From the IMG/VR virus record IMGVR_UViG_3300033148_007408, positions 38,656 through 102,655 of that record: DNA of 64,000 nucleotides. The stretch is one strand, 5' to 3'. Below the pieces are notes generated by a model. It saw only the letters and a program-made list of their open reading frames with translations. It did not search any database and was not told where the DNA came from. Source of the DNA: a virus. Positions within the stretch are counted from its first letter, which is position 1; every line of letters begins with the position of its first letter. The position numbers and the translations under genes were made by a program. Below are positions 31,034 through 59,608 of the stretch, one piece after another.

Positions 31034-32215
31034 ATGGAACAATATTCAATAGGCGAAATGGCTAAAAAATTGGGAAAAAGCGTGAAAACCTTGCAGCGGT
31101 GGGATAAAAATGGGACACTATCGGCTTTTAGACATGCTTCCAATAGGCGTTATTATACCCAAAAACAATTTCTAGAAGCCTCCAACAGAGTCAATTATAT
31201 TAAAGATGGTACGGACTTGGATGCTGTTAGAAATAAAACGGTATTAATAACCGGGGCAACAGGGAGTCTCGGAACTAAACTCACGGCACGCATTTGTACT
31301 GTGGCCAAAAAAATTATTGTTTTTAGTCGGTGCGAATTAAAGCAAGCAAATATGCAGGCTCAGTTTTCCGATAAAGACAATATAAGGTATATGCTGGGAG
31401 ATATTAAAGACAAGGAAAGGTTAGATTCTGCCTTGGATGGTGTAGATGTTTGTGTCCACGCTGCTTGTTTTAAGAGAATAGACAGTTGTTCTTATAATCC
31501 CTTTGAGGCAATTAAAACCAACATTAATGGCTCCGTAAATGTTGCGGAGGCGTGTATTAAGCGACAGGTTAAAAAAGTAATTTTTGTTTCAACAGATAAG
31601 GCAACTGAGTCCGGTACGTTATATGGCGGAACAAAGTTTGTCGCAGAACAGATGTTTATCAATGCAAATAACTATTCTAGTCGTAACTCTACAATTTTTT
31701 CGATAGTCAGGTATGGGAATGTTTATGGCAGTAATGGGAGCGTTAGGCATATTTTTGAGAAACAGGCGGAAGAAAATGGTGTTATTGGCATAACACACCC
31801 GGAAATGACTAGGTTTTTTATGTCTCTTGATGATGCGTGTGATCTTGTTTTATTTTGTGCAAATGGTATGATTGGTGGAGAAATATACGTTCCGAAAATG
31901 AAATCCATAGAGATAGTAAAATATGCAGAAATCTTTGCACCAAATACTCCCATAAAAATTATAGGACTTCGTGGCCATGAGAAAATACATGAAAAGTTAA
32001 TCTCCGAAACGGAAATGCTATATGTGGTTAAATGTAATGAAAAGTATTACAAAATAATCCCGCCCCATGTTAATATTCCGGGATTGGGTTGGGACGTTAA
32101 TTATCCAGAAGAAAAAAAGACACATAAAGTTACCTTATCATCGAATACTGCAGAAAGATTTACCAACCAAGAAATTATGAAGTTTGAATGCGACTTAAGT
32201 AATAAGGATGCGTGA
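31034..32215 (+). CDS. pseB: UDP-GlcNAc 4,6-dehydratase (PseB/FlaA1 family) with N-terminal MerR/IS607-TnpA-type HTH
   Basis: N-terminal YSIGEMAKKLGKSVKTLQRWDKNG...RRYYT; then ITGATGSLG, FSRCELKQ, HAACFK, STDKA...LYGGTK, VRYGNVYGSNGSV, MTRFFM, GHEKIHEKL. Confidence 0.9.
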   Translation: MEQYSIGEMAKKLGKSVKTLQRWDKNGTLSAFRHASNRRYYTQKQFLEASNRVNYIKDGTDLDAVRNKTVLITGATGSLGTKLTARICTVAKKIIVFSRCELKQANMQAQFSDKDNIRYMLGDIKDKERLDSALDGVDVCVHAACFKRIDSCSYNPFEAIKTNINGSVNVAEACIKRQVKKVIFVSTDKATESGTLYGGTKFVAEQMFINANNYSSRNSTIFSIVRYGNVYGSNGSVRHIFEKQAEENGVIGITHPEMTRFFMSLDDACDLVLFCANGMIGGEIYVPKMKSIEIVKYAEIFAPNTPIKIIGLRGHEKIHEKLISETEMLYVVKCNEKYYKIIPPHVNIPGLGWDVNYPEEKKTHKVTLSSNTAERFTNQEIMKFECDLSNKDA

Positions 32216-33433
32216 ATGAGCAAACCAGCGATAGAAGGCGGAAATCCTATACGAGAGAATTTTCTAGTTTTTGGCCAGCCTCAGGTTACAAAAGAAGATA
32301 TTTCCGCAGTTACAGAAACAATGCAGTCTTGTTGGCTAGGCACTGGAAAGAAAACAACTGAGTTTGAACATAAGTTTGCTGAATATCAAGGGGTTAAACA
32401 CGCTATAGGCCTAAACTCGTGCACTTCTAGTCTCCTTTTAGGCCTATTGTCGCTGGGATTGAATTTTCGCGACGAAGTCATATGCCCTATTTTCACCTTT
32501 ACAGCCACTGCTAGCCAAATAATCCACAGCCGACTCAAACCCGTGTTCATAGACGCCCAAATGAAAACGCAAAATATCGAGGTGGCAAACATAGAGCAAG
32601 CAATAACCGCAAAAACTCGTGCAATAATTATAGTGCATTTTGCTGGATTGTCGTGCGAGATGGATGAAATAATTGACATATGTAAGCGATACAATTTATA
32701 TTTATTATGTGATTCCGCACATTGTATAGAAGGGACTTACAAAGGAAAACACTGTGGGACGTTTGGTGACATAGGATGTTTTTCATTCTACAGCACCAAA
32801 AATATGACGACAGCAACCGGCGAGGGCGGAATGCTTGTGTGCGAAGATGATAGAATAGCAGAGTTTGTGCGTAAAGCTTCTCTTCACGGTATGTCTAAAG
32901 GAGCACATAACAGATTCAATACAGGCGGTTTTAATCATTACAGCGTCGATATGTGTGGCTTCAAGAGTAACCTAACAGATGTACAATCATCAATGGCGAT
33001 GACTCAATTATCTCGAATCGAATTGAATTGGGAGAAACGTAGTAAGGTATGGGATAAATACATGAAAGCATTTGGGGCATTAGACAACTTATTATTTACC
33101 CCGCCGCCTGTACCAAAACATATCAAGCACGGGTATCATCTTTTCACTCTACACCTGAAAATAGAAAAGCTTAAGGTGGGACGAGATTTTGTTCTTAATG
33201 CGTTGGCCAAAGAGGGTATAGGGACCGGAGTGCATTATCTGTCTTTACATATGCACCCATATTATATGAACACTTTTAATTTATCCGCTGTAGATTTTCC
33301 ATGTGCGCAATGGGTTTCAGAGAGGACTATTTCATTACCGCTGTCACCAAAACTTACGGAAAAAGACACAGATGATGTGATAAAGGCGGTTTATAAAATA
33401 CTCAATTATTATAAGAAAGTTGGCTCGGTATGA
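32216..33433 (+). CDS. DegT/DnrJ/PseC-family PLP sugar aminotransferase
   Basis: NSCTSSL, FTFTATA, DSAHCI, FSFYSTKNMTTATGEGGM, GVHY, ISLPLSP. Confidence 0.92.
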   Translation: MSKPAIEGGNPIRENFLVFGQPQVTKEDISAVTETMQSCWLGTGKKTTEFEHKFAEYQGVKHAIGLNSCTSSLLLGLLSLGLNFRDEVICPIFTFTATASQIIHSRLKPVFIDAQMKTQNIEVANIEQAITAKTRAIIIVHFAGLSCEMDEIIDICKRYNLYLLCDSAHCIEGTYKGKHCGTFGDIGCFSFYSTKNMTTATGEGGMLVCEDDRIAEFVRKASLHGMSKGAHNRFNTGGFNHYSVDMCGFKSNLTDVQSSMAMTQLSRIELNWEKRSKVWDKYMKAFGALDNLLFTPPPVPKHIKHGYHLFTLHLKIEKLKVGRDFVLNALAKEGIGTGVHYLSLHMHPYYMNTFNLSAVDFPCAQWVSERTISLPLSPKLTEKDTDDVIKAVYKILNYYKKVGSV

Positions 33434-34113
33434 TTGATTTAGATGGAAAAAATATATTACTGACGGGCGATAAGGGTTTTTTGGGGAACAACCTTAAAAA
33501 CAAACTGCTCCAAGAGTTTGGTTGTAATGTCGTTGGTGTTGATTTGAATGTTTTTGATATAACGGATCCAAATGCCACCGAACAGTATTTTAACTCGATT
33601 GACCTTGAGTTTGATGGAGTGATTAATAATGCGGCAGTCAGTTTTAAGGGAAAGAATATTTCGAATAAAAAGTTTTTAGAAACGCTAAATGTTAATATTT
33701 TTGGCACATATAATGTAATGAAACATGTCCTCCCGAAAATAAAAAAAGGCGGAAGTGTGGTTAATATATCTAGCGTTTATAGTTTTGCAATTCCCAAATA
33801 TTCTATGTATGATGGGAACGAAGAACAATATAACAATATTTCATACGGTGCCAGTAAAGCAGCCGTAAACCAAATGACCAAAATAATGGCAGTGCAAATG
33901 GCACCGGACATAAGAGTAAATGCCGTTAGTCCGGGGGGAATAAGAGGGGATCAAAATATAGAGTTTGTTAAAAAATATTCCCAAAATGTTCCGCTCCAAA
34001 GAATGGTAGAGGTCGATGAGGTTATTGGCTGTATTGTATTTTTGCTGTCAGATATGTCTAGCGGTATAACGGGACAAAATATTTATGTTGATGGTGGTTT
34101 GGGGATTGTATAA
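33430..34113 (+). CDS. SDR oxidoreductase (PtmA-like)
   Basis: TGDKGFLG, INNAA, NISSVY, YGASKAA, RVNAVSPGG, ITGQNIYVDGG. Confidence 0.9.
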   Translation: MIDLDGKNILLTGDKGFLGNNLKNKLLQEFGCNVVGVDLNVFDITDPNATEQYFNSIDLEFDGVINNAAVSFKGKNISNKKFLETLNVNIFGTYNVMKHVLPKIKKGGSVVNISSVYSFAIPKYSMYDGNEEQYNNISYGASKAAVNQMTKIMAVQMAPDIRVNAVSPGGIRGDQNIEFVKKYSQNVPLQRMVEVDEVIGCIVFLLSDMSSGITGQNIYVDGGLGIV

Positions 34114-34937
34114 TGCAGAAGGTTTTTATAATAGCGGAAGCAGGCATAAATCATAATGGCGACGTAGAAGAGGCCAAGAGACTAATAGATGTTGCTCAAA
34201 AATCAGGGGCAAATGCTGTTAAGTTTCAGTCTTATCATACAGACTCGCGTGTTAAAAAAGATAATCCTGCCTATGAAATATTAAAAAAGTGCGAATTGTC
34301 CAAAGAAGAACAGATGTCTCTAATATCTCACGGAAAAGATATGGGAACAGAGGTATTTTTTACTGTTTTTGATTCCGACCATCTTTCATTTTTATTGAAT
34401 GATTGCGGAGCCCAAAGGATAAAATTGGCGTCTTTTGATATAGTTAATATGTCGTTTCTCCGAGAAATAAATCAGTATGCTAGAAGTGATTATAATTTGA
34501 ATGTATTACTATCTACCGGTATGTCTGACCTCCATGAAATAAATAATGCAAGAAACTGCTTAAGTAATGTATCTAATTTGACATTAATGTATTGTGTTTC
34601 TGCGTATCCTATAAAAGATGAAAGCCAAATAAATCTATCATCCATACAAACATTAAAATCGTTTGCATATGGTCCAATTAAAGTGGGGTATAGCAACCAT
34701 CATAAGTCATCCGATATTCCGTTATGGGCCGTTTTAATGGGCGCAAAAACAATAGAATGTCATTTTATGGAAAACGAAAATGACAAATGTGTTGATGCAC
34801 CAGTATCATTAGACAAAAAGATGTTTTCCGATATGGTAAATAAAATACGACGAGCTGAAACCATAATGGGCGATGGAGTGTTGGGGCTAAAGCAAATAGA
34901 AAAAGATGCTTTGGGTTTTAGGAGGGTTTCTGGGTGA
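34113..34937 (+). CDS. Nonulosonic acid synthase 1 (NeuB/PseI family), lacking the C-terminal AFP/SAF domain
   Basis: IIAEAGINHNGD, AVKFQ, IKLAS, LSTGM, CVSAYP, GYSNHH, IECHF. Confidence 0.9.
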   Translation: MQKVFIIAEAGINHNGDVEEAKRLIDVAQKSGANAVKFQSYHTDSRVKKDNPAYEILKKCELSKEEQMSLISHGKDMGTEVFFTVFDSDHLSFLLNDCGAQRIKLASFDIVNMSFLREINQYARSDYNLNVLLSTGMSDLHEINNARNCLSNVSNLTLMYCVSAYPIKDESQINLSSIQTLKSFAYGPIKVGYSNHHKSSDIPLWAVLMGAKTIECHFMENENDKCVDAPVSLDKKMFSDMVNKIRRAETIMGDGVLGLKQIEKDALGFRRVSG

Positions 34938-35779
34938 AAATTTCTTTTTACAGGGATCACGGTGCTATTCGTGAGATAGGCAAAGGGCATTTATATCGAA
35001 CCAAAGCAATTTCCCGCGAGTTAGCAAAGAGAGGTCACTCAGTAGCAAATATTGAAGATGATGTACTTTACTCCGATCTTGATGCATTAGTGATAGATCA
35101 TATACACAGCCAAAAAGAAATTATTATGAGAGCGAAACAAGCAAAAATAAAGGTAATTTTGATCGATGGGGCGGTAGAAGATGTTGCATTAGTTGATGTT
35201 AGTATTAGTGCAATGTATAATCCTATTGCTCAATTTTCAGGACTTAAATATGTATGTATTCCGACAGAGGGTCGTACTAATTACTATTCCGTCGGCAGAA
35301 AGAGTAAAAATGTATTCGTTGCGATGGGAGGATTTGACGCCAACAATATAGCAGAAATGATTGTCGATGCACTCGGGGGTATTGGATTATATGCGATAGT
35401 GGCTAAAAGTATAAATCATGACTTTGCGCCATATAGCAATATGGAGTTTTTCGAGGAAGAAAATTATTACGATGCTATGAACGAATGCACAATAGCAGTA
35501 ACAAACGGCGGACTTAGTCTTTTTCAACTTTTATATTATGGAATGCCCTGTGTAGCAATTCCGCAGTATAAACATCAATCTAAAAACATTTCTTTTGTGA
35601 GTGGTTGTTGTGTTAAGTGTATGCCGGAAAAAGATGAGATAAAAGAAAAAGTGAAATTTCTTATGGATGATGAGTATGCCAAAATCGATTTCAGTATATT
35701 TGGCTCTAACGTAATTGATGGTAAGGGGTGCGAAAGGGTTTGCGATATAATAGAAGGTGTTCATGATTCCGCTAATTGA
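34934..35779 (+). CDS. PseG/SpsG-like UDP-sugar hydrolase
   Basis: IGKGHLYRT, VAMGGFD, TNGGLSLFQ, HQSKN, IDGKGCERV. Confidence 0.82.
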   Translation: MKISFYRDHGAIREIGKGHLYRTKAISRELAKRGHSVANIEDDVLYSDLDALVIDHIHSQKEIIMRAKQAKIKVILIDGAVEDVALVDVSISAMYNPIAQFSGLKYVCIPTEGRTNYYSVGRKSKNVFVAMGGFDANNIAEMIVDALGGIGLYAIVAKSINHDFAPYSNMEFFEEENYYDAMNECTIAVTNGGLSLFQLLYYGMPCVAIPQYKHQSKNISFVSGCCVKCMPEKDEIKEKVKFLMDDEYAKIDFSIFGSNVIDGKGCERVCDIIEGVHDSAN

Positions 35780-36689
35780 TCGTAGGATTTTGCTTTTTGG
35801 TTCGCAGAAAATAGCCATAGATATTATAAATCTAATAAAAAAGCGGAAGTTTTGCGGAATGGACATGGAGACATATGTTTATCCCGAGTTAGTTGGTGTA
35901 ATAACTTCTGATGAGGAAAGAGACAGGCAGGGCGACAATCAATTAGTGTCAGAGTATTGTTTTCAGCAGGGCATTCCATCTTTTTGTTTTGAGGGAAAAA
36001 TAAACACCGAAATAATTAAGAAAATGAAACCCGATATAATATTCAGCGTGTATTATAGAAAAATGATTCCAAAAGATGTGTTAAGCATTCCGCATATGGG
36101 TTGTGTAAATCTTCACCCATCTTTACTTCCCAAAGATCGTGGTCCAAATCCAGTATATTGGTGCATTAGGCGGGGAGATAAGATAACGGGAACCACATTG
36201 CATTATATGGATGAAGGAATGGATACGGGAGATATTATAGACCAGAGGCAAGTACGAATTAATAACATGGCGGGCTTTAGGTTGGGCGAACAGTTAATGA
36301 AGTCGGGAGTTGATTTGTTTAGGTCCAATTACGCAGATATAATGTGCGGAAAGAATGATAGGATGGAACAGGACAGTACGTATATTGCCCCGACATGTAA
36401 TATTTTGTTTAATGATTTAATGCGTAAAATAAATTGGACCGAAAGTGCGGAAAGTATAATCAACCACATCAGGGCACACACTCGGCCTTATTCTGGTTCG
36501 ATTGCGGAAAATAAAAATGGCGGTCAGACTTTTTTGTGGAAGGCCGAGATATTACACGAGTTAAGGGGCAATAAAGGCCCGGGCAGTTATGAAATACGCA
36601 ATGGAGATTTAATTGTGCAGACTTATAATTCCCCCATTAGGGTTAAAGATTATACGGGCGAAATAAAACCAAAAGGAAGGTTTGTATGA
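35763..36689 (+). CDS. N-formyltransferase (Fmt/ArnA-like)
   Basis: NLHPSLLPKDRG, TGTTLHYMDEGMDTGDII, INW...IRAHTRPYSG. Confidence 0.92.
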   Translation: MIPLIDRRILLFGSQKIAIDIINLIKKRKFCGMDMETYVYPELVGVITSDEERDRQGDNQLVSEYCFQQGIPSFCFEGKINTEIIKKMKPDIIFSVYYRKMIPKDVLSIPHMGCVNLHPSLLPKDRGPNPVYWCIRRGDKITGTTLHYMDEGMDTGDIIDQRQVRINNMAGFRLGEQLMKSGVDLFRSNYADIMCGKNDRMEQDSTYIAPTCNILFNDLMRKINWTESAESIINHIRAHTRPYSGSIAENKNGGQTFLWKAEILHELRGNKGPGSYEIRNGDLIVQTYNSPIRVKDYTGEIKPKGRFV

Positions 36690-37459
36690 GTGTTGGAATT
36701 ATTATACAGGCTAGATCTGGGAGCAGTAGATTTCCACGTAAAATCTATGCCCCTTTTAATAATGGCAAAAATAGCATTCAGTGTATTTTAGAGGGAACAA
36801 AGAAAACCATTGTTCCGCATAAGATTGTGTTGGCTATGCCCAAAGATGACCAAAAAGAAATAGAAAAAAGATTGGCAGAAGGAGAATTTAACGAATATAT
36901 CGATAATAGGTTTGAGTTATTTATTGGGCTAGGTGAAGAAGACGACTTGGTGGATAGGTATTATGGGGCGATGAGGAAGTTCGATATAGATGTTTGTATG
37001 AGGATAACGGGAGACTGCCCTATGCACTGTGCCACTTCCGGTATGATGGATGATATGCTGCTGAAATATTTGGGCGAGAGAAAAAGCGTTTTTATGGGAA
37101 ATGATCTGTTAGTGTCACGAGTTCCTTATCCATGCGGAATTGACATGGAGGTATTCAATTACGAGATGATGTGCTGGGTTAAAATGCATGCGAAAACTGA
37201 TGCTGAATTAGAACATTGTGTAACTACCTTGTATGGAACTTTTTCACCCTTCGATTTATACGGTTACGAAAACATTAGGCCACAAATTCAAATATCAACA
37301 CGTATTTCTGATTTTTCCCTAGATACGCGTGAAGATTATGAATTGTTGAAAAAATTGATGAATGAATATGATAAATATCAAGACATAAACAAGGCGATAG
37401 AGAGTGTAAGCCTATCCAATATTAAAAAAACCAATATGAGCAAGAATTTTAGGCAATAG
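36686..37459 (+). CDS. SpsF-type nonulosonate cytidylyltransferase 1
   Basis: IIQARSGSSRFPRK, RITGDCP, PCGIDME, EHCVT, SLDTREDY. Confidence 0.9.
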   Translation: MSVGIIIQARSGSSRFPRKIYAPFNNGKNSIQCILEGTKKTIVPHKIVLAMPKDDQKEIEKRLAEGEFNEYIDNRFELFIGLGEEDDLVDRYYGAMRKFDIDVCMRITGDCPMHCATSGMMDDMLLKYLGERKSVFMGNDLLVSRVPYPCGIDMEVFNYEMMCWVKMHAKTDAELEHCVTTLYGTFSPFDLYGYENIRPQIQISTRISDFSLDTREDYELLKKLMNEYDKYQDINKAIESVSLSNIKKTNMSKNFRQ

Positions 37460-37473
37460 GGCGGGCGAGGGCG

Positions 37474-38592
37474 ATGAGAAAAAAACGAACTATAGAGGGG
37501 TGCCAAGAACATGCCGAGAGTAAGGGCGGGAAATGTATATCGGTAGAATATATCAATGCATGCACTAATCTCGAATGGGAATGTAAAGAAAAACACAGGT
37601 GGTTCGCAACTCCAAATAACATATTGAACAGTGGCACTTGGTGCCCGTTTTGTGTTAGAGTGGCACCATTAAATATTGAGATTTGCCAAGAGCATGCAGA
37701 AAGTAAAAAGGGGAAGTGTTTATCGACTGAATATATAAATGTGCATACTAAACTTGAATGGGAGTGTGAAGAGAGACATACATGGTTTGCAACACCAAAT
37801 AATATTTTGAACAAAGATCGATGGTGTCCCGAGTGCAATAGTCCCGCGCCTCTAACCATTGAAATTTGCCAAGAGTATGCAGAAAGTAAAAAGGGGAAGT
37901 GTTTATCGACTGAATATATAAATAACAAAACAAAACTTGAATGGGAATGTGAAGAGAAGCATACATGGTTTGCAACATCGAGCAGTGTGTTTAATAAAGA
38001 ATGTTGGTGTCCATATTGTGTCAAGAAGGCGAAGCTTACTATTGAAATATGCCAAGAGTATGCCAAAAGCAAAGGTGGAAAATGTTTATCGACTGAATAT
38101 ATTAATAACCACACAAAACTTGAGTGGGAGTGTGAAGAAAAACATCGATGGTTTGCTAAACCACATAATGTTCTAAATTGTGGCACCTGGTGCCCGCAAT
38201 GCAAAAATAAAACACAGAAAAAATTAACGGATATAATTAAGTCTATATTTCAGGATAAAACGGTGCTCTCGGGTTATACTGGGTTTATTTGGCTCAAAAA
38301 TAAAAGAACCAAAAAACACCAAGAGCTAGATATTTATATACCAGAACTTAAAATTGCCATAGAATATGATGGAGAACAACACTTTGGCCCAGTTCGGTTT
38401 AACGGTATATCAATGAAAAGGGCTAAAGAAAAATATAAAGACCAAAAGAGACGAGATAAAAGGAAAAACCGAGTAATTAAAGCACATCCGGAAGATGTAA
38501 AATATTTTATAAGAATACCCTGCGCCGACAAGAAGAAAATATCAGAAAAATATGTAAAAGAGAAATTGCAAGAAGCTGGAATTGAAATATGA
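37474..38592 (+). CDS. Endonuclease with four ~61-aa Zn-ribbon repeats and a C-terminal Vsr-like PD-(D/E)XK domain
   Basis: Four repeats of GKCLSxEYIN..TKLEWECxExHxWFA.P....WCPxC; ELDIYIPELKIAIEYDGEQHF. Confidence 0.88.
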   Translation: MRKKRTIEGCQEHAESKGGKCISVEYINACTNLEWECKEKHRWFATPNNILNSGTWCPFCVRVAPLNIEICQEHAESKKGKCLSTEYINVHTKLEWECEERHTWFATPNNILNKDRWCPECNSPAPLTIEICQEYAESKKGKCLSTEYINNKTKLEWECEEKHTWFATSSSVFNKECWCPYCVKKAKLTIEICQEYAKSKGGKCLSTEYINNHTKLEWECEEKHRWFAKPHNVLNCGTWCPQCKNKTQKKLTDIIKSIFQDKTVLSGYTGFIWLKNKRTKKHQELDIYIPELKIAIEYDGEQHFGPVRFNGISMKRAKEKYKDQKRRDKRKNRVIKAHPEDVKYFIRIPCADKKKISEKYVKEKLQEAGIEI

Positions 38593-39035
38593 GAAAAAAT
38601 GAGAAATACATATGTCTTTCTGGTATGGCGGATCCTTTACGACTTGGGCATATTAAAATGTTGCAGGAGGCGAGCTTTTATGGTAAGGTTATTTGGATAT
38701 TAAACTCGAATGAGTGGATCGAGAGACGGCGAGGCTATTATTTGATGGATTGGAGTGAACGAGCCGAAATACTACGAGCCTATAAAGAAATTCATGATGT
38801 TGTGCCTGTTGACGATCTTGAGGGCGGAACAGTTGAAGAGGCCTTGATACGAATCAAACCACATTTTTTTGGTAATGGCGGCGACTCAAACCCAGACAAT
38901 ACACCGGAAATTAATATCTGTAATCAACTAGGCATAGAGGTGGTGTTCGGATTGGGTGGAGACAAAATGCACAACTCAGGAGAACTCATAGATGTGGTTG
39001 TCGCATCGATTATTAAAAAATTGGAAAAGTGGTAA
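38589..39035 (+). CDS. Cytidylyltransferase-like nucleotidyltransferase (TagD/RfaE-like; HxGH changed to RLGH)
   Basis: SGMADPLRLGH, LNSNEWI, ERAEIL, GNGGD, NTPE, GLGGDK. Confidence 0.85.
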   Translation: MRKNEKYICLSGMADPLRLGHIKMLQEASFYGKVIWILNSNEWIERRRGYYLMDWSERAEILRAYKEIHDVVPVDDLEGGTVEEALIRIKPHFFGNGGDSNPDNTPEINICNQLGIEVVFGLGGDKMHNSGELIDVVVASIIKKLEKW

Positions 39036-41955: not shown

Positions 41956-41957
41956 TT

Positions 41958-45468: not shown

Positions 45469-45470
45469 CA

Positions 45471-47680: not shown

Positions 47681-47688
47681 AGGTAAAT

Positions 47689-49832: not shown

Positions 49833-49854
49833 ATTATTAAGTTGGGAGATACAA

Positions 49855-52633: not shown

Positions 52634-52634
52634 T

Positions 52635-53735
52635 ATGGAAAAGAAACAAAAAATTGCTATAATAATGCACGGAGCAAGGTTCTTAAAAAACTTTATTTCA
52701 TATAAAAATAGATCGGACGTTGATCAGATTTTATTAGTACCCAGGGAGGTGGAGCATAAGAGATTTGGCATATCCGATGTTAAAATTTATGATGCGCGAG
52801 AGCAAATAGATCGTTATTTGAGGAAGTTTAAGCCCAATTTTTGTATTCAGGCGTCCACAGATTTTACAAACTATAGATATTTTTTGAAAACCAAAGTTAG
52901 GAAAGTATTTGTGTCGCCGGGAATGTATGCAGATTCTGATGAAGTAAGAAGGATTCTTTTTAGGGAGCGAAAAAAATTCAAAATTTTTGATTTAATATTC
53001 GTGGCATCCGAAAGAGAAAAGGAACTATTTGAGTGCATGAGAATCCCAGAGAAAAAAATAAGAGCCGTATCTCTTCCGCAATTTGATTTGCTTGGTAAAG
53101 ATAGATATCACGAATATAGAACATCTTTATTATCGCAACTCAAGTTTGTTCCAGAAAAGATAATTTTATTTGCCGGCGATAGATACTCAAACTCTGCGGA
53201 TGTAAGAAGAGTCAGAGACAATTATGATACAATTTTAAAACTTTCCGAAATAGTAAGGCATAGGAACTGGCTTGTTTTGATCAAACCCAAAAGCAACAAT
53301 ATGTTAGAATTTATAGAGAGAGATAGCCTTGGTTTTTCCGAGGGTTACATAAGAAAATTTCATAACGCTTTGAAAAATGATCATGTGGTGGTGTTAAAAT
53401 TTAGTGATTGGTTTTATCCATATTTTTTTGCTGATGTGATAATAGATAATGGCGGGTCTACGGTTGCAATAGAGGCTTGTCTGGCAAATCGACCATCAAT
53501 ATCAATTTCCGAGAGACAATCTTTTGCAGAAATGGATAGCCACGGGGTACTTGGTTCTGATGCGAGTTTTTATCTAAGTGATATGTTGGATTTGCTTAAG
53601 TGTATTTATGAAGCAAATTACACTAGTGATATTGGGATGGCCCAAAATAACTTTTTAGACAAAATAGGATTAGTTAAGAGCCCCGAATCGAGCAATGGTT
53701 TAATTGATGCCATATTAAAAGAATACGGGGTTTGA
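52635..53735 (+). CDS. Divergent GT-B (TagF-like) putative transferase, family A
   Basis: LPQFDL, ILFAG, NWLVLIKP, YFFADV...STVAIEACLANRP; paralog of 45471. Confidence 0.6.
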   Translation: MEKKQKIAIIMHGARFLKNFISYKNRSDVDQILLVPREVEHKRFGISDVKIYDAREQIDRYLRKFKPNFCIQASTDFTNYRYFLKTKVRKVFVSPGMYADSDEVRRILFRERKKFKIFDLIFVASEREKELFECMRIPEKKIRAVSLPQFDLLGKDRYHEYRTSLLSQLKFVPEKIILFAGDRYSNSADVRRVRDNYDTILKLSEIVRHRNWLVLIKPKSNNMLEFIERDSLGFSEGYIRKFHNALKNDHVVVLKFSDWFYPYFFADVIIDNGGSTVAIEACLANRPSISISERQSFAEMDSHGVLGSDASFYLSDMLDLLKCIYEANYTSDIGMAQNNFLDKIGLVKSPESSNGLIDAILKEYGV

Positions 53736-53736
53736 G

Positions 53737-54495
53737 ATGCTGTCTAATTGTGAGAACAACAGGATTTTGATTATTGGATCTGGGCCATCAACTAAAAATA
53801 TTGTCAGGTATAAAAACTGTCTCAAAGAATGTTTCGATGTAATAATAGGAATTAATAGTGTATTTTTGGAATTTGAGGATCTTCTAAACTTTCATATGAT
53901 TCCAGAGGCAAATGCGTTTCAAGAATATGATTTATTAAACGATAAAAAAATAATAAAAAACCCGCTGACCCCTAGAATAGTGGATGAAAGCAATATAAAA
54001 TGCGTGGATAAACCATTGAACGTGATTGGTTGCAAAAAAGTAAATATCGATTATCTTTCAAGTTTTAAAAGATATGATGGGAAATCTTTATATAACTTGG
54101 CAGAAAAATTTGATGATTCGTTCGGTCCAATCGGAACTGCATTCTTACAATCGCTTCATTTTGCGGTAATGCTTGGCGCACAATCTATATTTATAATAGG
54201 AAGTGAGTTTTGTTTTGCCGATTCTTCTGATAGGTTTTATAATACTAAATTTTACTCAAACCTATCTGGTGGCATTTATGAAAAAACCAAGATAATCCGT
54301 GGTAATAGAACTTACAATACCATGCTTGCGTTTAAATTGGCAGCGTTGACGGCAGATTTTGCTATAAATAAGTTTATTTTACCAGAAGGTATAAAAATAT
54401 ATGACTTTTCGAATGGGCTTATGTCTTCTCCAAAAAAATTAGATTTGGACAAGTTTATGTGTTCAAACGGAGTGCAGAATGAAGGTTGTGTTTGA
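53737..54495 (+). CDS. Maf/DUF115-like putative nonulosonate transferase 2
   Basis: ILIIGSGPST, IIGIN, GTAFLQSLHFAVMLGAQSIFIIG. Confidence 0.78.
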   Translation: MLSNCENNRILIIGSGPSTKNIVRYKNCLKECFDVIIGINSVFLEFEDLLNFHMIPEANAFQEYDLLNDKKIIKNPLTPRIVDESNIKCVDKPLNVIGCKKVNIDYLSSFKRYDGKSLYNLAEKFDDSFGPIGTAFLQSLHFAVMLGAQSIFIIGSEFCFADSSDRFYNTKFYSNLSGGIYEKTKIIRGNRTYNTMLAFKLAALTADFAINKFILPEGIKIYDFSNGLMSSPKKLDLDKFMCSNGVQNEGCV

Positions 54496-54847
54496 TATAG
54501 ATGGGGTAATTTGCACTAATACATGGGGAAATTATGCAAAGGCGAAACCTCATTTAGAAATGATTGCTTTTATTAACAAATTACACGACGATGGAAATGA
54601 GATAATTTTTCATTCTGCTCGTGGGTTTGGAACATGCGGTGGTGTAATAAAAGATATAAACGCAAAATGGTATGATTTTACCGTGAAACAATTGTACGAT
54701 TGGGGTGTAAAATATAACTTTTTAACATTAGGAAAGCCAGACGGGCAAATATATGTAGATGACAAAGCATTTAGGGCGAATGGAAATACATGTGGCGATA
54801 TTAGTCGGCTTGAACTTTACATTGAAGGGTTGGATGCCAATGGTTAA
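54479..54847 (+). CDS. Small HAD-family phosphatase (capsule-biosynthesis type)
   Basis: FDIDGVIC, HSARG, GKP...YVDDKA. Confidence 0.88.
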   Translation: MKVVFDIDGVICTNTWGNYAKAKPHLEMIAFINKLHDDGNEIIFHSARGFGTCGGVIKDINAKWYDFTVKQLYDWGVKYNFLTLGKPDGQIYVDDKAFRANGNTCGDISRLELYIEGLDANG

Positions 54848-55505
54848 TGTATGTATAATTCCCGCTAGAGGCGGATCTAAAGGAATACCGCATAAAAATA
54901 TTAAATTGTTAAATGATAGACCGCTTATATACTATTCTATTTGCGCGGCCCAGCAATCAAAAAAGTTTGATTGCATAACAGTGTCTTCGGATAGTCAAAA
55001 AATATGTGATTTGGCTCAAAGTTATGGCGCTCAAACCCGAAGAAGACCCGCTTGTCTTGCAGTAGATTGGGTTCATTCTGTGCATGTCGTTTTAGATTGT
55101 ATAAAGTTTTATGGCTTAAAGGGCACTGATCTAATATGTATGCTTCTTCCCACCGCACCGCTGAGGGTTGGTCGGGATATAATAGGAGCGGTGGAGAGTT
55201 TTAATCCCAACAGATACGATTCACTAGTAAGTGTGTGCGAGTTTAATGGTGTGATGTCAAGTTTTAGATTTGTAGAAAAAGATATTTTGATTCCAGTTGT
55301 TTCCACGAATAATTTTGAAAACCAAAGGCAGGACTCGAAAACGATATACGAAGTGAATGGATCGATATATATCTCAACAGTAAAAAATCTGATAGACAAT
55401 AAAAGTTTTCACAAAGGAAAAGTTCAACCCTTTATTATGGAAAGAGAGAGGTCGATAGATATAAATGATAAATATGATTGGAAGATCGCAGAGGCTTTAA
55501 TATGA
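54840..55505 (+). CDS. neuA: CMP-nonulosonic acid synthetase (NeuA/PseF family)
   Basis: IIPARGGSKGIPHKNIK, VSSDS, LLPTAPLR, RQD...YEVNGSIYI, SIDINDKYDW. Confidence 0.92.
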   Translation: MVNVCIIPARGGSKGIPHKNIKLLNDRPLIYYSICAAQQSKKFDCITVSSDSQKICDLAQSYGAQTRRRPACLAVDWVHSVHVVLDCIKFYGLKGTDLICMLLPTAPLRVGRDIIGAVESFNPNRYDSLVSVCEFNGVMSSFRFVEKDILIPVVSTNNFENQRQDSKTIYEVNGSIYISTVKNLIDNKSFHKGKVQPFIMERERSIDINDKYDWKIAEALI

Positions 55506-56641
55506 AAAAAATTTGGATGGTGGGTGCGTGGGCCAATAATTATGGTGATCGCATCTTGCAGAAGGCTAATGCAGATTTATTGAGCCGAATATCTGATTGT
55601 TGCTTCGCATATATAAACTGCCAGCAAACATATTTTTCTCGACAACTTATTGATTATCTAAACAAAGATGCCGATATGTTATTTTTGGCCGGCGGGGGGC
55701 TTATTTTTAATCGTCCGCAAGACAAATCATTCTCGGGCTGGCAATGGAATATAAAAAAGGAAGACATTGGGCATATCAAGGTTCCAATAGTCGTAAATGC
55801 CGTGGGGTATAATAAGTTTCCCGGCGACGCATCAGATTTCAAGTCAGGAATGTGGGATCACGTACAAGAAACAATAGATAGGTCGGTTCTTTTTTCTGTG
55901 CGTAATACAGGAACATACGAAAGACTAAACTGTGCCGGATTAAATACATCGGGAGTGGAAATTACCCCAGATTGCGGAATGTTTATAAAAGAAGAGCCAT
56001 TTGAACACGATATTTTTAGTCGAGGGTTTAAAATAGGATTAAATTGGGCTACAGATCGCATACAGCAAAGATTTGGCGAAAACTGGACGCAAAAATTGCT
56101 TGATGTATTAACTTGGTGTAAGGAAATGATTAAAGAAAAACAGGCAACCGTCTATCTTATCGAACATCTCATGCCTAATGAGTTAAATTACACTGCCAAA
56201 AAAATCGCTAGGGAAATGTTTGCCTCGGAGTTGGGAAAAAATGGTATTATTGTGCGTGATGAGCTAGAAACAGAGATGTATCCTATGTTCGATTATACCG
56301 CCTCTTTTTTTGCCAATATATATGGTAAAATGGATTTGGTAGTTGGAATGCGGGGACACAGTATGATTGTTCCATTTGGGCTTGGTGTGCCTATTATAGG
56401 ATTGGGGCAGCATAATAAAATTAAGTGGTTTTTAGAGGATGTGGGGCTTGAAGATTTTTTGGTGAGGTTAGATTGTGATAGTAATAAAAATGTAGCAGGC
56501 TTGGGGCGTCTAACCGATAGAATTTTTGACGATTTGGACTCCTACATGTGTACTATTAAACATAGCAGAGAAAATCAAACCAACCAATGCACAAAGTGGT
56601 TTGATAAAATAAGAAATATTTTGGAGCATTCTCATGGATAA
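55502..56641 (+). CDS. Polysaccharide pyruvyltransferase family protein
   Basis: NNYGDRIL, AGGGLIF, FSVRN, TPDCG, VVGMRGHSMI. Confidence 0.88.
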   Translation: MKKIWMVGAWANNYGDRILQKANADLLSRISDCCFAYINCQQTYFSRQLIDYLNKDADMLFLAGGGLIFNRPQDKSFSGWQWNIKKEDIGHIKVPIVVNAVGYNKFPGDASDFKSGMWDHVQETIDRSVLFSVRNTGTYERLNCAGLNTSGVEITPDCGMFIKEEPFEHDIFSRGFKIGLNWATDRIQQRFGENWTQKLLDVLTWCKEMIKEKQATVYLIEHLMPNELNYTAKKIAREMFASELGKNGIIVRDELETEMYPMFDYTASFFANIYGKMDLVVGMRGHSMIVPFGLGVPIIGLGQHNKIKWFLEDVGLEDFLVRLDCDSNKNVAGLGRLTDRIFDDLDSYMCTIKHSRENQTNQCTKWFDKIRNILEHSHG

Positions 56642-57473
56642 AATACTCTATATAGCAGAAATAGGACTGAATCATAACGGAGATATAAAAATTGCAAAAC
56701 AGATAATTGATGCTGCGGTTCAAGCGGGGGTCGATGCTGTAAAGTTTCAGAAAAGAACGCCGGATTTGTGTGTGCCCGAAGATCAAAAAAGTGTAATGCG
56801 AGAAACACCGTGGGGTCTAATGAGTTATTTGGATTATCGTCGTCGAATCGAGTTTGACGAAAAGGAATACGACGAAATAAATGAATATTGCGAACAGTGT
56901 GGCATTAGTTGGTTCGCCTCTTCGTGGGATATTCCGTCTCAAAAATTCTTGCGCAAATATAATTTGAGTTATAATAAAGTCGCGAGTGCCATGCTTACAT
57001 ATGAAGATTTATTACACGAAATGGCATCGGAGAAAAGACATACATTTATCTCAACCGGAATGTCTACATGGAACGAAATAGAATCTGCGGTTGAAATATT
57101 TAGACATTATGATTGTCCGTTCACCCTTATGCATTGTACATCAACATATCCTACCGCGATGGAAGAGTTGAATCTGAATGTAATACCCGTGCTCAAAGAC
57201 AAATTTCCAGACAGCGTGGGAGTGGGATTCTCTAATCATAGCCCAGGGATTTTGGCGTGTTCTTTGGCAGTTTCTCTAGGGGCAACTTGTGTTGAGGGAC
57301 ATTGCACTATTCGAAGAAATATGTGGGGAACCGATCAAAGCAATTCACTGGAACCAAATGGACTTGAAAAAATGATAAGAGATTGTAACAATGTACACAA
57401 GATTTTAGGAGATGGGACCAAAAAAGTATATGAAAGCGAAAAGCCGATAAGAAAAAAATTACGTAAATACTAA
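56634..57473 (+). CDS. Nonulosonic acid synthase 3 (NeuB family; no AFP domain)
   Basis: IAEIGLNHNGD, VKFQKRTP...RETPWG, KVASA, ISTGM, HCTSTYP, GFSNHS, GTDQSNSLEP. Confidence 0.93.
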   Translation: MDKILYIAEIGLNHNGDIKIAKQIIDAAVQAGVDAVKFQKRTPDLCVPEDQKSVMRETPWGLMSYLDYRRRIEFDEKEYDEINEYCEQCGISWFASSWDIPSQKFLRKYNLSYNKVASAMLTYEDLLHEMASEKRHTFISTGMSTWNEIESAVEIFRHYDCPFTLMHCTSTYPTAMEELNLNVIPVLKDKFPDSVGVGFSNHSPGILACSLAVSLGATCVEGHCTIRRNMWGTDQSNSLEPNGLEKMIRDCNNVHKILGDGTKKVYESEKPIRKKLRKY

Positions 57474-57484
57474 AGGAGTTTAAT

Positions 57485-58033
57485 ATGTTGGTTGGAGAAA
57501 AAATAACTTTAGGGGAAGTAGATCCCGAAAACATAGAACAACTTAGGATGTGGAGAAATGATCCGTCTATGAGAAAGTTTTTTAGAGAGTGGAAAGACAT
57601 AAGCAAGGATAAACAGCAACAGTGGTACGAAGAACGCGGCAACAATACCAATCCGAGCCATATTTACTTTCAAATAAAATCAAAAAATAAATTAATTGGA
57701 TGCTGTGGGCTTCATTATATCGATTGGCGAATTCGTTCTGTTGAGTTTTCTATATTTCTCGGTGTCGACAGGGGACAGGGGAAGGGAAAAGAAGCTCTGG
57801 TCCTCATGTGTGATTATGCTTTCAAAGAGGTTGGCGTCCATAAGGTTTGGTGCGAAGTATATGATAACAATCCGTCTGTCAATCTGTATAAAAAAGTTGG
57901 GTTTGTTGAAGAGGGAGTTCTCCGGGACAATTATTATCACGAGGGAAAATATGGTAATTCAATTATCATGTCCGTATTAGAGAATGAGTGGCGTGCTAAA
58001 TATGGAGACGGTGTATTGTGGGGAGATTTATAA
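57485..58033 (+). CDS. GNAT acetyltransferase (PseH-like)
   Basis: LRMWRNDP, RGQGKGKEAL, HKVWCEVYDNN, LYKKVGFVEEGVLRD. Confidence 0.9.
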   Translation: MLVGEKITLGEVDPENIEQLRMWRNDPSMRKFFREWKDISKDKQQQWYEERGNNTNPSHIYFQIKSKNKLIGCCGLHYIDWRIRSVEFSIFLGVDRGQGKGKEALVLMCDYAFKEVGVHKVWCEVYDNNPSVNLYKKVGFVEEGVLRDNYYHEGKYGNSIIMSVLENEWRAKYGDGVLWGDL

Positions 58034-58071
58034 CAAAAACCGAAAATCAAAATGCCAAAAAGGAGGCAAGT

Positions 58072-58800
58072 GTGACAGAAATTATTGCGGAAATAGGCAT
58101 AAACTTCATGGGGAATATGGAAATTGCCAGAAAACTTATTGCAGATGCGACGGAGTGTGGTGCAGATATTGCAAAGTTTCAGTGGTATAGTTGTGATTCT
58201 CTTTTTGGCGATCCATCAAAAGACACATACAATCAAAAGATATATGAAGCAGTAAAGCCGTTTGAGCTTGATGAAAAAAAGATTGAACAACTTGTCAAAT
58301 GGTGTGAGTTGGAGGGTATAGAGTTTGCATGTAGTGTTTTCGACAAAGAAAGGTTCGAAACATTGGAAGATTTAGGTGTCTCGGTGCATAAAGTTGCCTC
58401 TCGTGTTTCAAAATATGATCGAGATTTGGCAGTCAAAATAATAGAAACGGGAAAACCCTGTTATGTTTCGTTGGGTTTTGGTGCTGAGCCATTTGATACA
58501 GAAAAATATCCCAAGGTTCGACATCTTCAGTGCGTCGCTAAATACCCGACTTGGAATGAAGATTTTGATATACCCAAATCATTCGAGGATTCTATTTATT
58601 ATGGACTATCTTCTCATGCGACAACTCCCTATCCGGCCATGGTTGCTGTTGCTCGCGGTGCAAAAGCAATTGAAGTACATTTTACTTTAAGCAAGAGTAT
58701 GGTTGCTTTGCCAGGTGGGTTTGATCATTTGTGCTCGTTGAATAAAGATGAACTTAAACAATTGGTAGATTTTGCCTATCATGCCGATCAAATTAAATAA
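58072..58800 (+). CDS. Nonulosonic acid synthase 4 (divergent, short NeuB family)
   Basis: AGGAGG RBS with GTG58072; IIAEIGINFMGN, AKFQ, HKVAS, CVAKYP, GLSSHA, IEVHFT. Confidence 0.88.
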   Translation: MTEIIAEIGINFMGNMEIARKLIADATECGADIAKFQWYSCDSLFGDPSKDTYNQKIYEAVKPFELDEKKIEQLVKWCELEGIEFACSVFDKERFETLEDLGVSVHKVASRVSKYDRDLAVKIIETGKPCYVSLGFGAEPFDTEKYPKVRHLQCVAKYPTWNEDFDIPKSFEDSIYYGLSSHATTPYPAMVAVARGAKAIEVHFTLSKSMVALPGGFDHLCSLNKDELKQLVDFAYHADQIK

Positions 58801-58819
58801 ATATAGCAATGGGTTTAAA

Positions 58820-59608
58820 ATGAGCACAGCATATTATATGTCCTATAACCTTCCGACGCCAGCAAGTTTGCGTGCTCGGTATGATGGGTATAGTGCGTTA
58901 ATTATCGGCACGGGACAATCAACAGAAAATCTTTTAAAATACAAATCGGAAATAAAAAAACATTTTGATATTGTTATTGGGTTGAATTATGCGACGAAAG
59001 ACTTTGAAGATGTTATGGATTTTCATATGGTCATGGAAATTCGACCAATCGATATGGCAACGGAAATGGCATTAAATTATAGGAAAGATTTGCCACGAAT
59101 ATTAAACTACAAATCCATAAAATTTTTTCCAAAAGATATGAATATAATCAAAGCAAGACGAGAACCTTTTTTTGGAACACCGAATATAACTAAATATAAA
59201 TTTAATGGAGTGGAGGGTCTATTAGAGTATCGAAAAGATGGGCGAAAACTTCATTATGGTACGGTTATGTTACAGGCATTACATTTTGCGTGTATACTTG
59301 GTTGTAAGGACATATATCTTATTGGCGCGGATTTGGCATTTAAGGGTGAGTTTGATCATTACTACAAAGATAAATTTTATCGGGAGCCAATTACAGTGTC
59401 CACAAGCCGAAGTCCACTAATTATGACCAAGTTGGATGGCGAAATGATTCCAACGACCCACGTGTTTAAAAAAAGTGCAAGGTATATTGATAGAATGATA
59501 ATACAACAGTGTAGACCCCGTGGGATTGAGGTTTATGATTTTTCGGAAGGTTTAATCAATCGAGCAATTAAAGTAGAAATCGATTCATTTTTTCAAGTTG
59601 GTCCATAA
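58820..59608 (+). CDS. Maf/DUF115-like putative nonulosonate transferase 3
   Basis: ALIIGTGQST, VIGLNY, GTVMLQALHFACILGCKDIYLIGADL, DHYY; close paralog of 47689. Start position uncertain. Confidence 0.8.
   Translation: MSTAYYMSYNLPTPASLRARYDGYSALIIGTGQSTENLLKYKSEIKKHFDIVIGLNYATKDFEDVMDFHMVMEIRPIDMATEMALNYRKDLPRILNYKSIKFFPKDMNIIKARREPFFGTPNITKYKFNGVEGLLEYRKDGRKLHYGTVMLQALHFACILGCKDIYLIGADLAFKGEFDHYYKDKFYREPITVSTSRSPLIMTKLDGEMIPTTHVFKKSARYIDRMIIQQCRPRGIEVYDFSEGLINRAIKVEIDSFFQVGP

Follow-up and report, generated by a model that had tools for sequence, protein, structure and literature searches.

A 64-kb stretch of viral DNA (bases 38656-102655 of the 102,655-base IMG/VR virus record IMGVR_UViG_3300033148_007408), hereafter the window, carries at 31-60 kb a cluster of sugar genes that includes four synthases of the NeuB family, named here NeuB1 to NeuB4 in gene order (Table 1). 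The explanation that accounts best for this cluster, with a probability of about 0.55, is that the phage makes several ulosonic acids with four non-redundant NeuB enzymes and most likely coats its own virion with them. As judged from their sequences, the synthases represent four anciently diverged lineages, each of which combines the catalytic core with a clade-conserved pocket signature of its own. They would condense phosphoenolpyruvate (PEP) with sugar aldehydes, and we infer different sugar substrates leading to at least three ulosonic acids activated with cytidine monophosphate (CMP). An earlier note on this DNA had also proposed parallel pathways to distinct ulosonic acids, and this part of its proposal finds support: the synthases are regarded as non-redundant and as acting on different substrates because they keep a conserved core, fall into separate and divergent clades, have pockets conserved within each clade and, in three cases, recur in a syntenic relative. 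Its further proposal, of separate activation and transfer enzymes for every synthase, fails, since NeuB4 has no adjacent cytidylyltransferase and stands with NeuB3 in one conserved block that contains a single NeuA.

Searching the whole contig with the Pfam model PF03102 returned exactly these four NeuB genes, with scores of 181.3, 94.9, 237.4, and 130.3 bits for NeuB1 to NeuB4 (cut-off 22.1). The matches run from model position 1 to position 231-241 of 241, which places all four in the NeuB family. Alignment reproduces, letter for letter, the motifs quoted in the earlier note: AEAGINHNGD/GYSNHH in NeuB1, AEIAQGYEGD/GFMDHS in NeuB2, AEIGLNHNGD/GFSNHS in NeuB3, and AEIGINFMGN/GLSSHA in NeuB4. 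The more specific NCBIfam cut-offs are not reached, either for the PseI equivalog TIGR03586 (154.9, 83.7, 186.3, and 98.7 bits in the same order; cut-off 340.25) or for NeuB_NnaB TIGR03569 (210.4, 115.6, 252.5, and 126.4 bits; cut-off 399.65). Only NeuB2 has a C-terminal SAF (antifreeze-like) domain, as had been noted before, and the other three proteins end after the barrel. One SAF-less NeuB with a solved structure, 6NCS, is the best PDB match of NeuB1 (150.8 bits). This entry and the cytidylyltransferase 6OEW, the best match of both SpsF-like enzymes, are presumably Leptospira structural-genomics entries. The SAF domain supplies Arg314 to the partner subunit. It is absent in about 30% of the nonulosonate synthases in UniProt, which include a known large environmental group without it (PMC8208679). 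The true start of NeuB4 is probably about 20 codons downstream of the longest-open reading frame (ORF) start (58018-58080), at the position where its homologues begin.

The four proteins are 24-31% identical to each other. Trees were built with FastTree from 187 NeuB domains and, in a second run, with IQ-TREE from 59 rows; they were anchored by the E. coli K1 NeuB, by three PseI genes in pse clusters, and by three synthases in leg-type clusters, the last two groups being chosen by gene context. Both trees place the window NeuBs in four separately supported clades. FastTree gives these clades values of 98-100, apart from the broad virus-dominated one with NeuB4 (93), and IQ-TREE gives 97-100 by the SH-like approximate likelihood ratio test (SH-aLRT). 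Forcing NeuB1-4 into one clade costs 853 log-likelihood units in the approximately unbiased (AU) test (p-AU 3.5e-24). Recent duplication, an origin that the earlier note had left to be checked, is rejected by this test, and each protein is closer to proteins from elsewhere (45-76% identity) than to the other three. A fifth clade (support 99) is made up of the PseI anchors and holds no window protein. NeuB1 was also considered as a PseI ortholog and rejected on the tree, the AU test (p-AU 0.0003), and the NCBIfam score.

The closest relatives differ from clade to clade. For NeuB1 they are metagenome proteins (up to 57% identity) and a Kuenenia protein (42%), which all lack SAF and have about 277 residues. 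NeuB2 reaches 63% and is then about 45% identical to many proteins of about 329 residues; its clade (25 rows, support 100) sits on a long stem (1.43) and joins the Neu/Leg anchors at 93 in FastTree, or E. coli K1 NeuB alone at 87 in IQ-TREE, which puts the Leg-context anchors in an unresolved part of the tree. NeuB3 reaches 54%, and its clade (34 rows, support 98) contains genes from Methylomagnum and Hymenobacter plasmids at 49%. NeuB4 is 58-76% identical to a tight set of proteins of about 243 residues from contigs of up to 481 kb. By its position in the tree it is a member of a virus-dominated clade of mini-NeuB proteins of about 240 residues, which comprises 80 rows (support 93), 52 of them from IMG/VR viral contigs.

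The active sites were compared with those of the E. coli and N. meningitidis enzymes (residues in N. meningitidis numbering). The equivalents of E25, K53, Q55, K129, H215, E234, H236, and D247 are retained in all four clades. The E134 position is occupied by Asp in NeuB1 and NeuB2, by Met in NeuB3, and by Ser or Val in NeuB4, in each case throughout the clade. The NeuB2 clade has AQGYEG in place of GxNHxG, Glu in place of Tyr186, MDH in place of SDH, and Gly for the Asp of the FD motif. The NeuB3 clade is characterized by KFQK, by Trp for Phe112, and by the lack of an acidic residue at the Glu134 position, and the NeuB4 clade by INFM, KFQW, SLG, and SSH. Since these signatures are conserved across each clade around an intact metal/PEP core, they point to different substrate pockets rather than to decay.

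Three of the four synthases recur in a second huge-phage contig from IMG/VR (G002; 206 kb, 25% complete according to CheckV). The two contigs share, in the same order, GT-B-fold family A, HTH-PseB, PseC, the short-chain dehydrogenase/reductase (SDR), NeuB1, the PseG-like gene, SpsF1, TagD-like, and GNAT; then the class-III aminotransferase, TagF-like, family B, one mini-Maf, HAD, and NeuA; and finally the pyruvyl transferase, NeuB3, GNAT, NeuB4, and GT2. The shared genes are 43-65% identical, the NeuB1, NeuB3, and NeuB4 modules 44-57% (NeuB1 44%, NeuB3 57%). G002 lacks the formyltransferase, of which no homologue was found there, and the two nuclease-like ORFs. It also lacks the entire block at 43.0-54.5 kb with the radical S-adenosylmethionine (SAM) genes, family A and B copies, a mini-Maf (Maf2), NeuB2, and SpsF2. 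Because this block is missing from G002, the NeuB2 module is, on present sequence evidence, an accessory insert of about 11 kb, and the other three synthases are the conserved core.

NeuB1 lies in the module that can be assigned most closely. Together with the PseB-like, PseC-like, GNAT, PseG-like, and SpsF-like enzymes it would make a 5,7-diamino-tetradeoxy-nonulosonate of the pseudaminic/legionaminic acid (Pse/Leg) type, probably N-formylated, as the formyltransferase suggests for this phage. The claim is limited to this class of product. The stereochemistry, Pse or Leg, is not fixed by the gene set because a very similar set, the sps genes of B. subtilis, makes legionaminic acid (PMC7439481). 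Candidates are found for all six roles of the canonical CMP-Pse pathway, each below its equivalog cut-off; the PseF-type candidate (149.6 of 205.7 bits) sits in another module, and the PseH role would fall to a generic GNAT. The PseB-like dehydratase carries the T-x9-Y-x3-K motif, scores 330.5 bits against TIGR03589 (cut-off 407.75), and has an ortholog in G002 at 60% identity; its probable start is the ATG at 31034. A MerR/excisionase-type helix-turn-helix (HTH) of about 60 residues (31025-31200) precedes it in frame. The G002 ortholog (L089, 567-1715) has 382 residues, long enough for the same extension, and the fusion thus looks conserved. The three CMP-activating enzymes counted in the earlier note, two SpsF and one NeuA (36686, 50844, and 54759), are all of the CTP_transf_3 type; a fourth cytidylyltransferase, TagD-like (38589), was absent from it. 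Its gene orders for the modules are correct as given, and they omitted TagD-like, TagF-like, the two nuclease-like ORFs, and five GT-B-fold genes. The two nuclease-like ORFs (37474-40691) bracket the TagD-like and GNAT genes, and their absence from the syntenic G002 island is as expected of mobile selfish inserts.

The NeuB3 product may arise by a different route. NeuB3, the small HAD phosphatase, and NeuA would form a pathway through a phosphorylated ulosonate intermediate, like that to animal N-acetylneuraminic acid (Neu5Ac) or to bacterial 2-keto-3-deoxynononic acid (KDN), and the pyruvyl transferase may modify the product. A phosphorylated route is suggested because the pairing of NeuB3-type and HAD genes recurs, because the NeuB3-like gene of the Methylomagnum plasmid (49%) neighbours a HAD-IIIA hydrolase, along with a class-III aminotransferase, an SDR, and a split transketolase, and because Leptospira has a NeuB-phosphatase fusion (PMC3438082). 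Orthologs of the small HAD gene lie beside NeuB3-type genes in G002 (49%), in the Kyanoviridae genome MH319754.1 (52%, adjacent), and in LR756508.1 (33%). Neither of the last two loci is annotated: MH319754.1, a T4-like virus of the marine cyanophage family, has the NeuB3-type and HAD genes with SDR, SpsF-like, and DegT genes (L167, 12364-16148), and LR756508.1, an uncultured phage of 484 kb, has a NeuB3-type synthase and a small HAD gene (L166, 19920-24421). NeuA carries the motif IPARGGSKG, and its true start is probably near 54837, some 27-30 codons after the longest-ORF start (54759-54840). NeuB4 and its GNAT would constitute a virus-typical mini-synthase unit that probably borrows the cytidylyltransferase of a neighbouring module. 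The GNAT (57485) is a conserved partner of NeuB4, as its orthologs adjoin NeuB4-type genes in G002 (48%) and in a further contig, L007 (60%).

NeuB2 appears to belong to an imported cassette that is widespread in prokaryotes. With the single NeuB2 protein as query, nothing was found in the genome contigs, and an alignment-based search returned 64 bacterial and archaeal loci (L102-L165), of which the 31 with at least 4 kb on both sides were used for counts. An SpsF2-like gene lies immediately downstream of the NeuB2-type gene in 27 of these 31 loci (identity up to 53-55%), and by this conserved order SpsF2 is the cognate partner of NeuB2. A class-III aminotransferase is present at 26 of the 31. 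The one at 40684 is indeed positioned in the NeuB1 module, where the earlier note had listed it, but since its homologue travels with NeuB2-type genes it may belong functionally with NeuB2. NeuB2, SpsF2, and probably this aminotransferase would make a further ulosonate, which the adjacent B12-binding radical SAM enzymes may tailor. The cassette, in which the synthase has the AE[IVA]AQGYEG motif, occurs across many phyla, including Omnitrophota, Bacteroidota, Methanosarcinales, Pelagibacteraceae, Kiloniella, and Priestia, and a literature search found no description of the NeuB2-SpsF2-aminotransferase cassette or its product. B12-radical SAM genes are rare near the cellular NeuB2-type genes (2 of 31 loci). 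Homologues on the same strand as NeuB-like genes, 0-6.5 kb away, were found in 12 IMG/VR viral contigs (L009, L017, L020, L028, L032-L034, L046-L048, L054, and L057; L092 is the L048 contig again), directly adjacent in two (L048/G004 and L054). The two ORFs of the split B12-radical SAM gene in the window correspond to the N- and C-terminal parts of the intact copy (54% and 59% identity, respectively). At the split a TGA stop is followed by one base and an ATG in a different frame; the gene may be a pseudogene or encode a two-subunit form, or the split may be a sequencing error.

Transfer of the products would fall to three small proteins of 252-278 residues, the mini-Mafs, and perhaps also to some of the GT-B-fold proteins. 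These are the three Maf-like transferases of the earlier note; they are paralogs (28-45% identity) and score 25.5, 15.7, and 24.6 bits against the MptE-like model PF01973, below its cut-off of 34.6. A mini-Maf sequence profile gave no match to PDB sequences at E values up to 10. In a Foldseek search of the PDB the MptE kinase ranked highest and Maf was absent from the matches. Maf was found by an exhaustive structural search: an AlphaFold model of mini-Maf 1 (predicted local distance difference test, pLDDT, 66; predicted template modelling score, pTM, 0.75) has as its best match among 48,161 chains the Magnetospirillum Maf 5MU5 (Z 13.9, root-mean-square deviation 4.4, 208 residues), followed by the MptE kinase (Z 10.9), C. 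jejuni Cst-I (9.4), and mammalian GT29 sialyltransferases (about 8). The fold is thus sialyltransferase-like according to the model, which aligns to residues 257-511 of the 632-residue Maf chain, i.e. its central domain. Full-length Maf, of about 630 residues, also has N- and C-terminal domains, which the mini-Mafs lack.

No multi-pass membrane protein is predicted in the window, each ORF having at most one marginal hydrophobic segment, and for this reason no flippase, polymerase, exporter, or initiating transferase is recognized in it. Cytoplasmic glycosylation of phage structural proteins is favoured because of this absence of export genes, the fold of the mini-Mafs, and the adjacency of tail genes; transfer would occur in the cytoplasm, most likely onto the virion proteins of the phage. 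An alternative, which we consider unlikely, is that the island remodels the host surface during infection (flagellin, pili, S-layer, lipopolysaccharide, or capsule), export being left to host machinery, and thereby blocks superinfection or keeps progeny phage off debris. Known Mafs glycosylate flagellins, and the best structural match of mini-Maf 1 is a Maf; prophage enzymes O-acetylate capsule nonulosonates (PMC6586298); the TagD-like and TagF-like genes recall teichoic-acid-type polymers; and with about one-eighth of the genome in hand, export genes could lie elsewhere. However, the window is devoid of ABC exporters and initiating phosphoglycosyltransferases as of the other export functions, the mini-Mafs lack the domains that flank the Maf core, the island comes directly after baseplate and tail-fibre genes, and the investment would be very large for a function confined to the infected cell. 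No flagellin was found among the contig ORFs scanned, some ORFs being outside the scan or without a match.

The role of the GT-B-fold proteins, which form two families (A with three copies, B with two), is less clearly indicated. A model of family A matches UDP-GlcNAc 2-epimerases/NeuC (Z 15.4-16.8), TagF (15.2), and ordinary GT-B transferases (about 14) about equally well, and the structural neighbours of family B in the Atlas are Epimerase_2 and Glyphos_transf clusters. Comparisons by hhalign of the two families with E. coli K1 NeuS and NeuC and with each other, and of family B with the TagF-like gene, gave probabilities below 5%, from shallow alignments that carry little information.

Several points weigh against the reading that the phage coats its virion with several ulosonic acids. 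The virion as target is deduced from gene position and from the absence of export genes in a fragment with a CheckV completeness of 12%. The identities of products, substrates, and acceptors are predictions from sequence, and no pathway enzyme of the island reaches its NCBIfam equivalog cut-off. The members of families A and B may not be transferases and could instead be hydrolysing epimerases of the NeuC type. The other points concern the number of products, and they are also what would be expected if there were fewer products than synthases, with NeuBs that share a pathway, are isozymes, or are impaired, and one or two ulosonic acids as the outcome. There are three NeuA/SpsF-type cytidylyltransferases for four synthases. 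In both phages a single NeuA precedes the conserved block of NeuB3, GNAT, and NeuB4. A second NeuB, of canonical length, is present at 23 of the 31 cellular NeuB2-type loci, and NeuB2 could share a pathway with such an enzyme rather than make a separate sugar. In NeuB3 and NeuB4, the missing acidic residue at the Glu134 position may mean a different or weaker chemistry, and the split of the first B12-radical SAM gene indicates some decay in the island. This outcome nevertheless seems improbable to us: the pocket residues vary between clades and are constant within each, none of the four synthases has lost the metal ligands or the Lys/Gln pair, three of the four have been retained in G002, and in L007 (contig G001) a NeuB4-type gene is the only NeuB, showing that this type can stand alone.

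A broader proposal is tentative and, in our view, possible rather than probable. In it, a huge-phage lineage would carry an acidic glycocalyx of multiple ulosonates on its tail or capsid, made in part by essentially viral enzymes (the mini-NeuB clade of about 240 residues and the mini-Mafs), with at least one ulosonic acid that would be new; a linked B12-radical SAM enzyme might, for instance, add a C-methyl group to it or extend its chain, or it might carry a pyruvate ketal. Most of the 80 IMG/VR NeuB loci examined have a single mini-NeuB, with a NeuA-like gene at 29 and a B12-radical SAM gene within 0-6.5 kb at 12. An unrelated huge-phage contig of 350 kb (G004) has three NeuBs, which belong to different clades. 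Among 50,697 GenBank phage records searched with NeuB3 and NeuB4, three matched, one of them a Moritella contig. A literature search of limited coverage yielded no paper on phage-encoded NeuB-family synthases or on nonulosonate coats of phage particles.

Related systems are known from bacteria. The flagellin island of Campylobacter jejuni comprises PseB/C/H/G/I/F, LegI with Ptm genes, and Maf1-7, and gives several nonulosonates. Like the island described here, it combines several NeuB paralogs, CMP-nonulosonate pathways, tailoring enzymes, and multiple Mafs in one locus, and it glycosylates in the cytoplasm without export machinery, as proposed here (the comparison draws partly on PMC9298399). 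Unlike it, the present island belongs to a phage, has neither a flagellin among the ORFs scanned nor a PseI-clade synthase, carries Mafs cut to a core of about 255 residues, and includes three SAF-less synthases. In 9-phosphate routes, such as those of animal NANS/NANP and of the Bacteroides KDN-9-P synthase and KDN-9-P phosphatase, a sugar 6-phosphate is the substrate, and a HAD phosphatase and then a CMP-synthetase follow. By its gene content, the HAD-NeuA...NeuB3 set resembles these routes, but the HAD protein is unusually small (about 110-140 residues) and the pyruvyl transferase is interposed. The Leptospira interrogans cluster likewise has multiple synthases, aminotransferases, and CMP-synthetases, and several nonulosonates were detected (PMC3438082); its NeuB-phosphatase fusion implies a 9-phosphate route. 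It is, however, a bacterial surface system; in the phage island the phosphatase has a small HAD gene to itself, and the putative transferases are mini-Mafs. In B. subtilis, SpsM/C/D/G/E/F lead to CMP-legionaminic acid for the spore crust (PMC7439481). The resemblance lies in a Pse-like set of six enzymes that use UDP-linked sugars, among them a PseG-like enzyme and an SpsF-type cytidylyltransferase, and in the decoration of a proteinaceous particle that is assembled inside the mother cell; the differences are that SpsE has a SAF domain, that SpsM has Met at the Tyr of the triad (T-x9-Y/M-x3-K), and that there is a single synthase. Mimivirus-type fibril glycosylation and the glycosylation of mycobacteriophage capsids and tail tubes (Freeman et al. 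2023, cited in PMC12619734) are similar in that a virus brings sugar-nucleotide pathways or glycosyltransferases of its own and glycosylates its particle with them. To our knowledge, these systems use sugars other than ulosonic acids. For the mycobacteriophages, PMC12619734 speaks of "glycans" without naming them. What appears to be new here is the huge-phage setting, the presence of four synthase lineages in one island, the virus-dominated lineage, and the truncated Mafs.

Sialic-acid-like sugars are seen as tools with which cells shape their surfaces, serving motility, immune evasion, and phage defence. If the proposed reading is true, bacterial viruses can build a complex acidic sugar coat of their own. 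Such a coat could change how the particles adsorb, how stable they are, and how hosts, grazers, and animal immune systems recognize them. Three enzyme groups with distinct active sites, namely the virus-dominated mini-NeuB clade, the NeuB2-SpsF2-aminotransferase cassette of bacteria and archaea, and the SAF-less, phosphatase-linked NeuB3, would be starting points for new ulosonic acids and for glyco-engineering enzymes.

Table 1. Genes of the ulosonic acid island and of its immediate borders (window coordinates).
Coordinates	Strand	Predicted product	Evidence and remarks
29724..30797	+	GT-B-fold family A, copy 1	Directly upstream of PseB-like gene; G002 ortholog 49%
31025..32215	+	MerR-type HTH fused to PseB-like UDP-GlcNAc 4,6-dehydratase	Polysacc_synt_2 E 1.5e-82, MerR_1 E 7e-8
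32216..33433	+	DegT/PseC-like sugar aminotransferase	PF01041 E 6.8e-110; PseC model 293 bits, cut-off 423.5
33430..34113	+	Short-chain dehydrogenase/reductase	adh_short_C2 E 4.9e-42
34113..34937	+	NeuB1, SAF-less	PF03102 E 2.8e-53; 274 aa
34934..35779	+	PseG-like NDP-sugar hydrolase, weak match	TIGR03590 E 1.1e-10, 41.6 bits, cut-off 153.55
35757..36689	+	Formyltransferase, N- and C-terminal domains	Formyl_trans_N E 1.6e-26, Formyl_trans_C E 2.3e-10
36686..37459	+	SpsF-like cytidylyltransferase 1	CTP_transf_3 30.9 bits; PDB 6OEW E 1.3e-17
37474..38592	+	Nuclease-like ORF, CapR and DUF4379 zinc finger, probably mobile insert	Pfam
38589..39035	+	TagD-like small cytidylyltransferase	CTP_transf_like E 1.9e-6; G002 ortholog 47%
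39029..39571	+	GNAT N-acetyltransferase, candidate for PseH/SpsD role	Acetyltransf_3 E 2.7e-24
39549..40691	+	Second nuclease-like ORF	54% paralog of 37474
40684..41955	+	Class-III (omega-type) aminotransferase	Aminotran_3 E 7.2e-50
41958..43046	+	TagF-like glycerophosphotransferase-type GT-B protein	Glyphos_transf E 3.5e-6
43054..44416	+	B12-binding radical SAM gene, split in two ORFs (43054-43983, 43985-44416)	
44461..45468	+	Radical SAM enzyme with SPASM	Radical_SAM E 4.6e-14, SPASM E 2.8e-12
45402..46592	+	GT-B-fold family B, copy 1	Paralog of 52635; G002 ortholog 45%
46595..47680	+	GT-B-fold family A, copy 2	Paralog of 29724 (31%)
47689..48474	+	Mini-Maf 1, MptE/DUF115 core only	MptE-like E 1.3e-5, below cut-off
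48471..49832	+	Intact B12-binding radical SAM, directly upstream of NeuB2	Radical_SAM E 4e-18, B12-binding E 5.7e-13
49855..50847	+	NeuB2, with SAF; remodelled substrate pocket	PF03102 E 7e-27, SAF E 7e-5; 330 aa
50844..51599	+	SpsF-like cytidylyltransferase 2 (SpsF2)	CTP_transf_3 21.2 bits (cut-off 22.6); PDB 6OEW E 1.8e-8
51584..52633	+	GT-B-fold family A, copy 3	Paralog of 29724 (24%)
52635..53735	+	GT-B-fold family B, copy 2	Paralog of 45402
53737..54495	+	Mini-Maf 2	MptE-like E 0.013; 29-32% to other two
54479..54847	+	Small HAD-type phosphatase	Motifs DIDGV, HSARG, GKPD...VDDK; Pfam matches weak
54759..55505	+	NeuA/PseF-like CMP-ulosonate synthetase	CTP_transf_3 E 2.9e-20 (73.5 bits) from residue 31; TIGR03584 149.6 bits, cut-off 205.7
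55478..56641	+	Polysaccharide pyruvyl transferase family protein	PS_pyruv_trans E 1.9e-15; G002 ortholog 47%
56634..57473	+	NeuB3, SAF-less	PF03102 E 2.1e-70; 279 aa
57485..58033	+	GNAT acetyltransferase	Acetyltransf_3 E 1e-19
58018..58800	+	NeuB4, mini-NeuB	PF03102 E 1.1e-37; 260 aa
58772..59608	+	Mini-Maf 3	MptE-like E 2.4e-5; 45% to mini-Maf 1
59598..60209	+	GT2 glycosyltransferase closing the block	Glycos_transf_2 E 6.1e-28; 65% G002, 63% L007

The contig comes from a very large phage with a contractile tail and not from a cellular genome, as judged from its tail sheath homologue (phrog_2839, E 8.8e-19) and Baseplate_J protein (E 1.1e-23), both upstream of the window, from the orientation of its genes (84 of 86 ATG-start ORF calls on one strand), from its thymidine kinase and homing endonucleases, and from its status as an IMG/VR virus record. 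The tail sheath and baseplate genes place it among the Caudoviricetes with contractile tails. A giant eukaryotic virus, considered because of the low CheckV completeness, is rejected on the same two genes. Also upstream is a coiled-coil protein of 1555 residues, and the window itself starts within a protein that is about 2185 residues long and contains a concanavalin-A-like lectin domain. Its GC content is about 36% throughout. No tRNA genes were found on a scan, megablast of window positions 1-25000 against GenBank phages gave no match, and the 102.6-kb fragment does not carry the capsid, portal, or terminase genes. The CheckV values for this record (12% for 103 kb) and for G002 (25% for 206 kb) both imply genomes of about 0.8 Mb, an estimate that may be unreliable. 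It exceeds the largest phage genomes known to us.

The 31-60 kb stretch forms the distal half of a glycan island that extends over more than 50 kb. In the proximal part (8.9-27 kb), nine GT2 domains are encoded by at least eight genes, accompanied by two GT4-like genes, one of which was matched by PHROGs only, by sugar-type methyltransferases, and by a DUF2334 protein. Nucleotide-metabolism genes lie close by (thymidine kinase and methyltransferases at 23.4-29 kb), and together with the many glycosyltransferases they would fit a third use of the sugars, as a bulky hypermodification of the phage DNA; virus-encoded glycosyltransferases that hypermodify DNA with glycans are cited in a passage of PMC12619734. 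This use is highly improbable, as no base-hydroxymethylase or DNA glycosyltransferase family was detected and folds of the Maf/sialyltransferase type act on protein or glycan acceptors. We know of no ulosonic acid on DNA.

Homing endonuclease genes of the HNH, LAGLIDADG, and GIY-YIG types are dispersed in the window, as is the thymidine kinase gene, and they are unusually dense in the island. Two LAGLIDADG genes (15182-17711) flank a lone GT2 gene (15913-16755), and genes of the GIY-YIG/HNH type lie at 7433, 20449, and 29176. The one at 20449-21987 encodes an HNH-repeat protein of 512 residues with a weak N-terminal match to tetrahydrofolate dehydrogenase/cyclohydrolase (25.1 bits, cut-off 32.8), which, if real, could relate to the supply of formyl-tetrahydrofolate for the formyltransferase.

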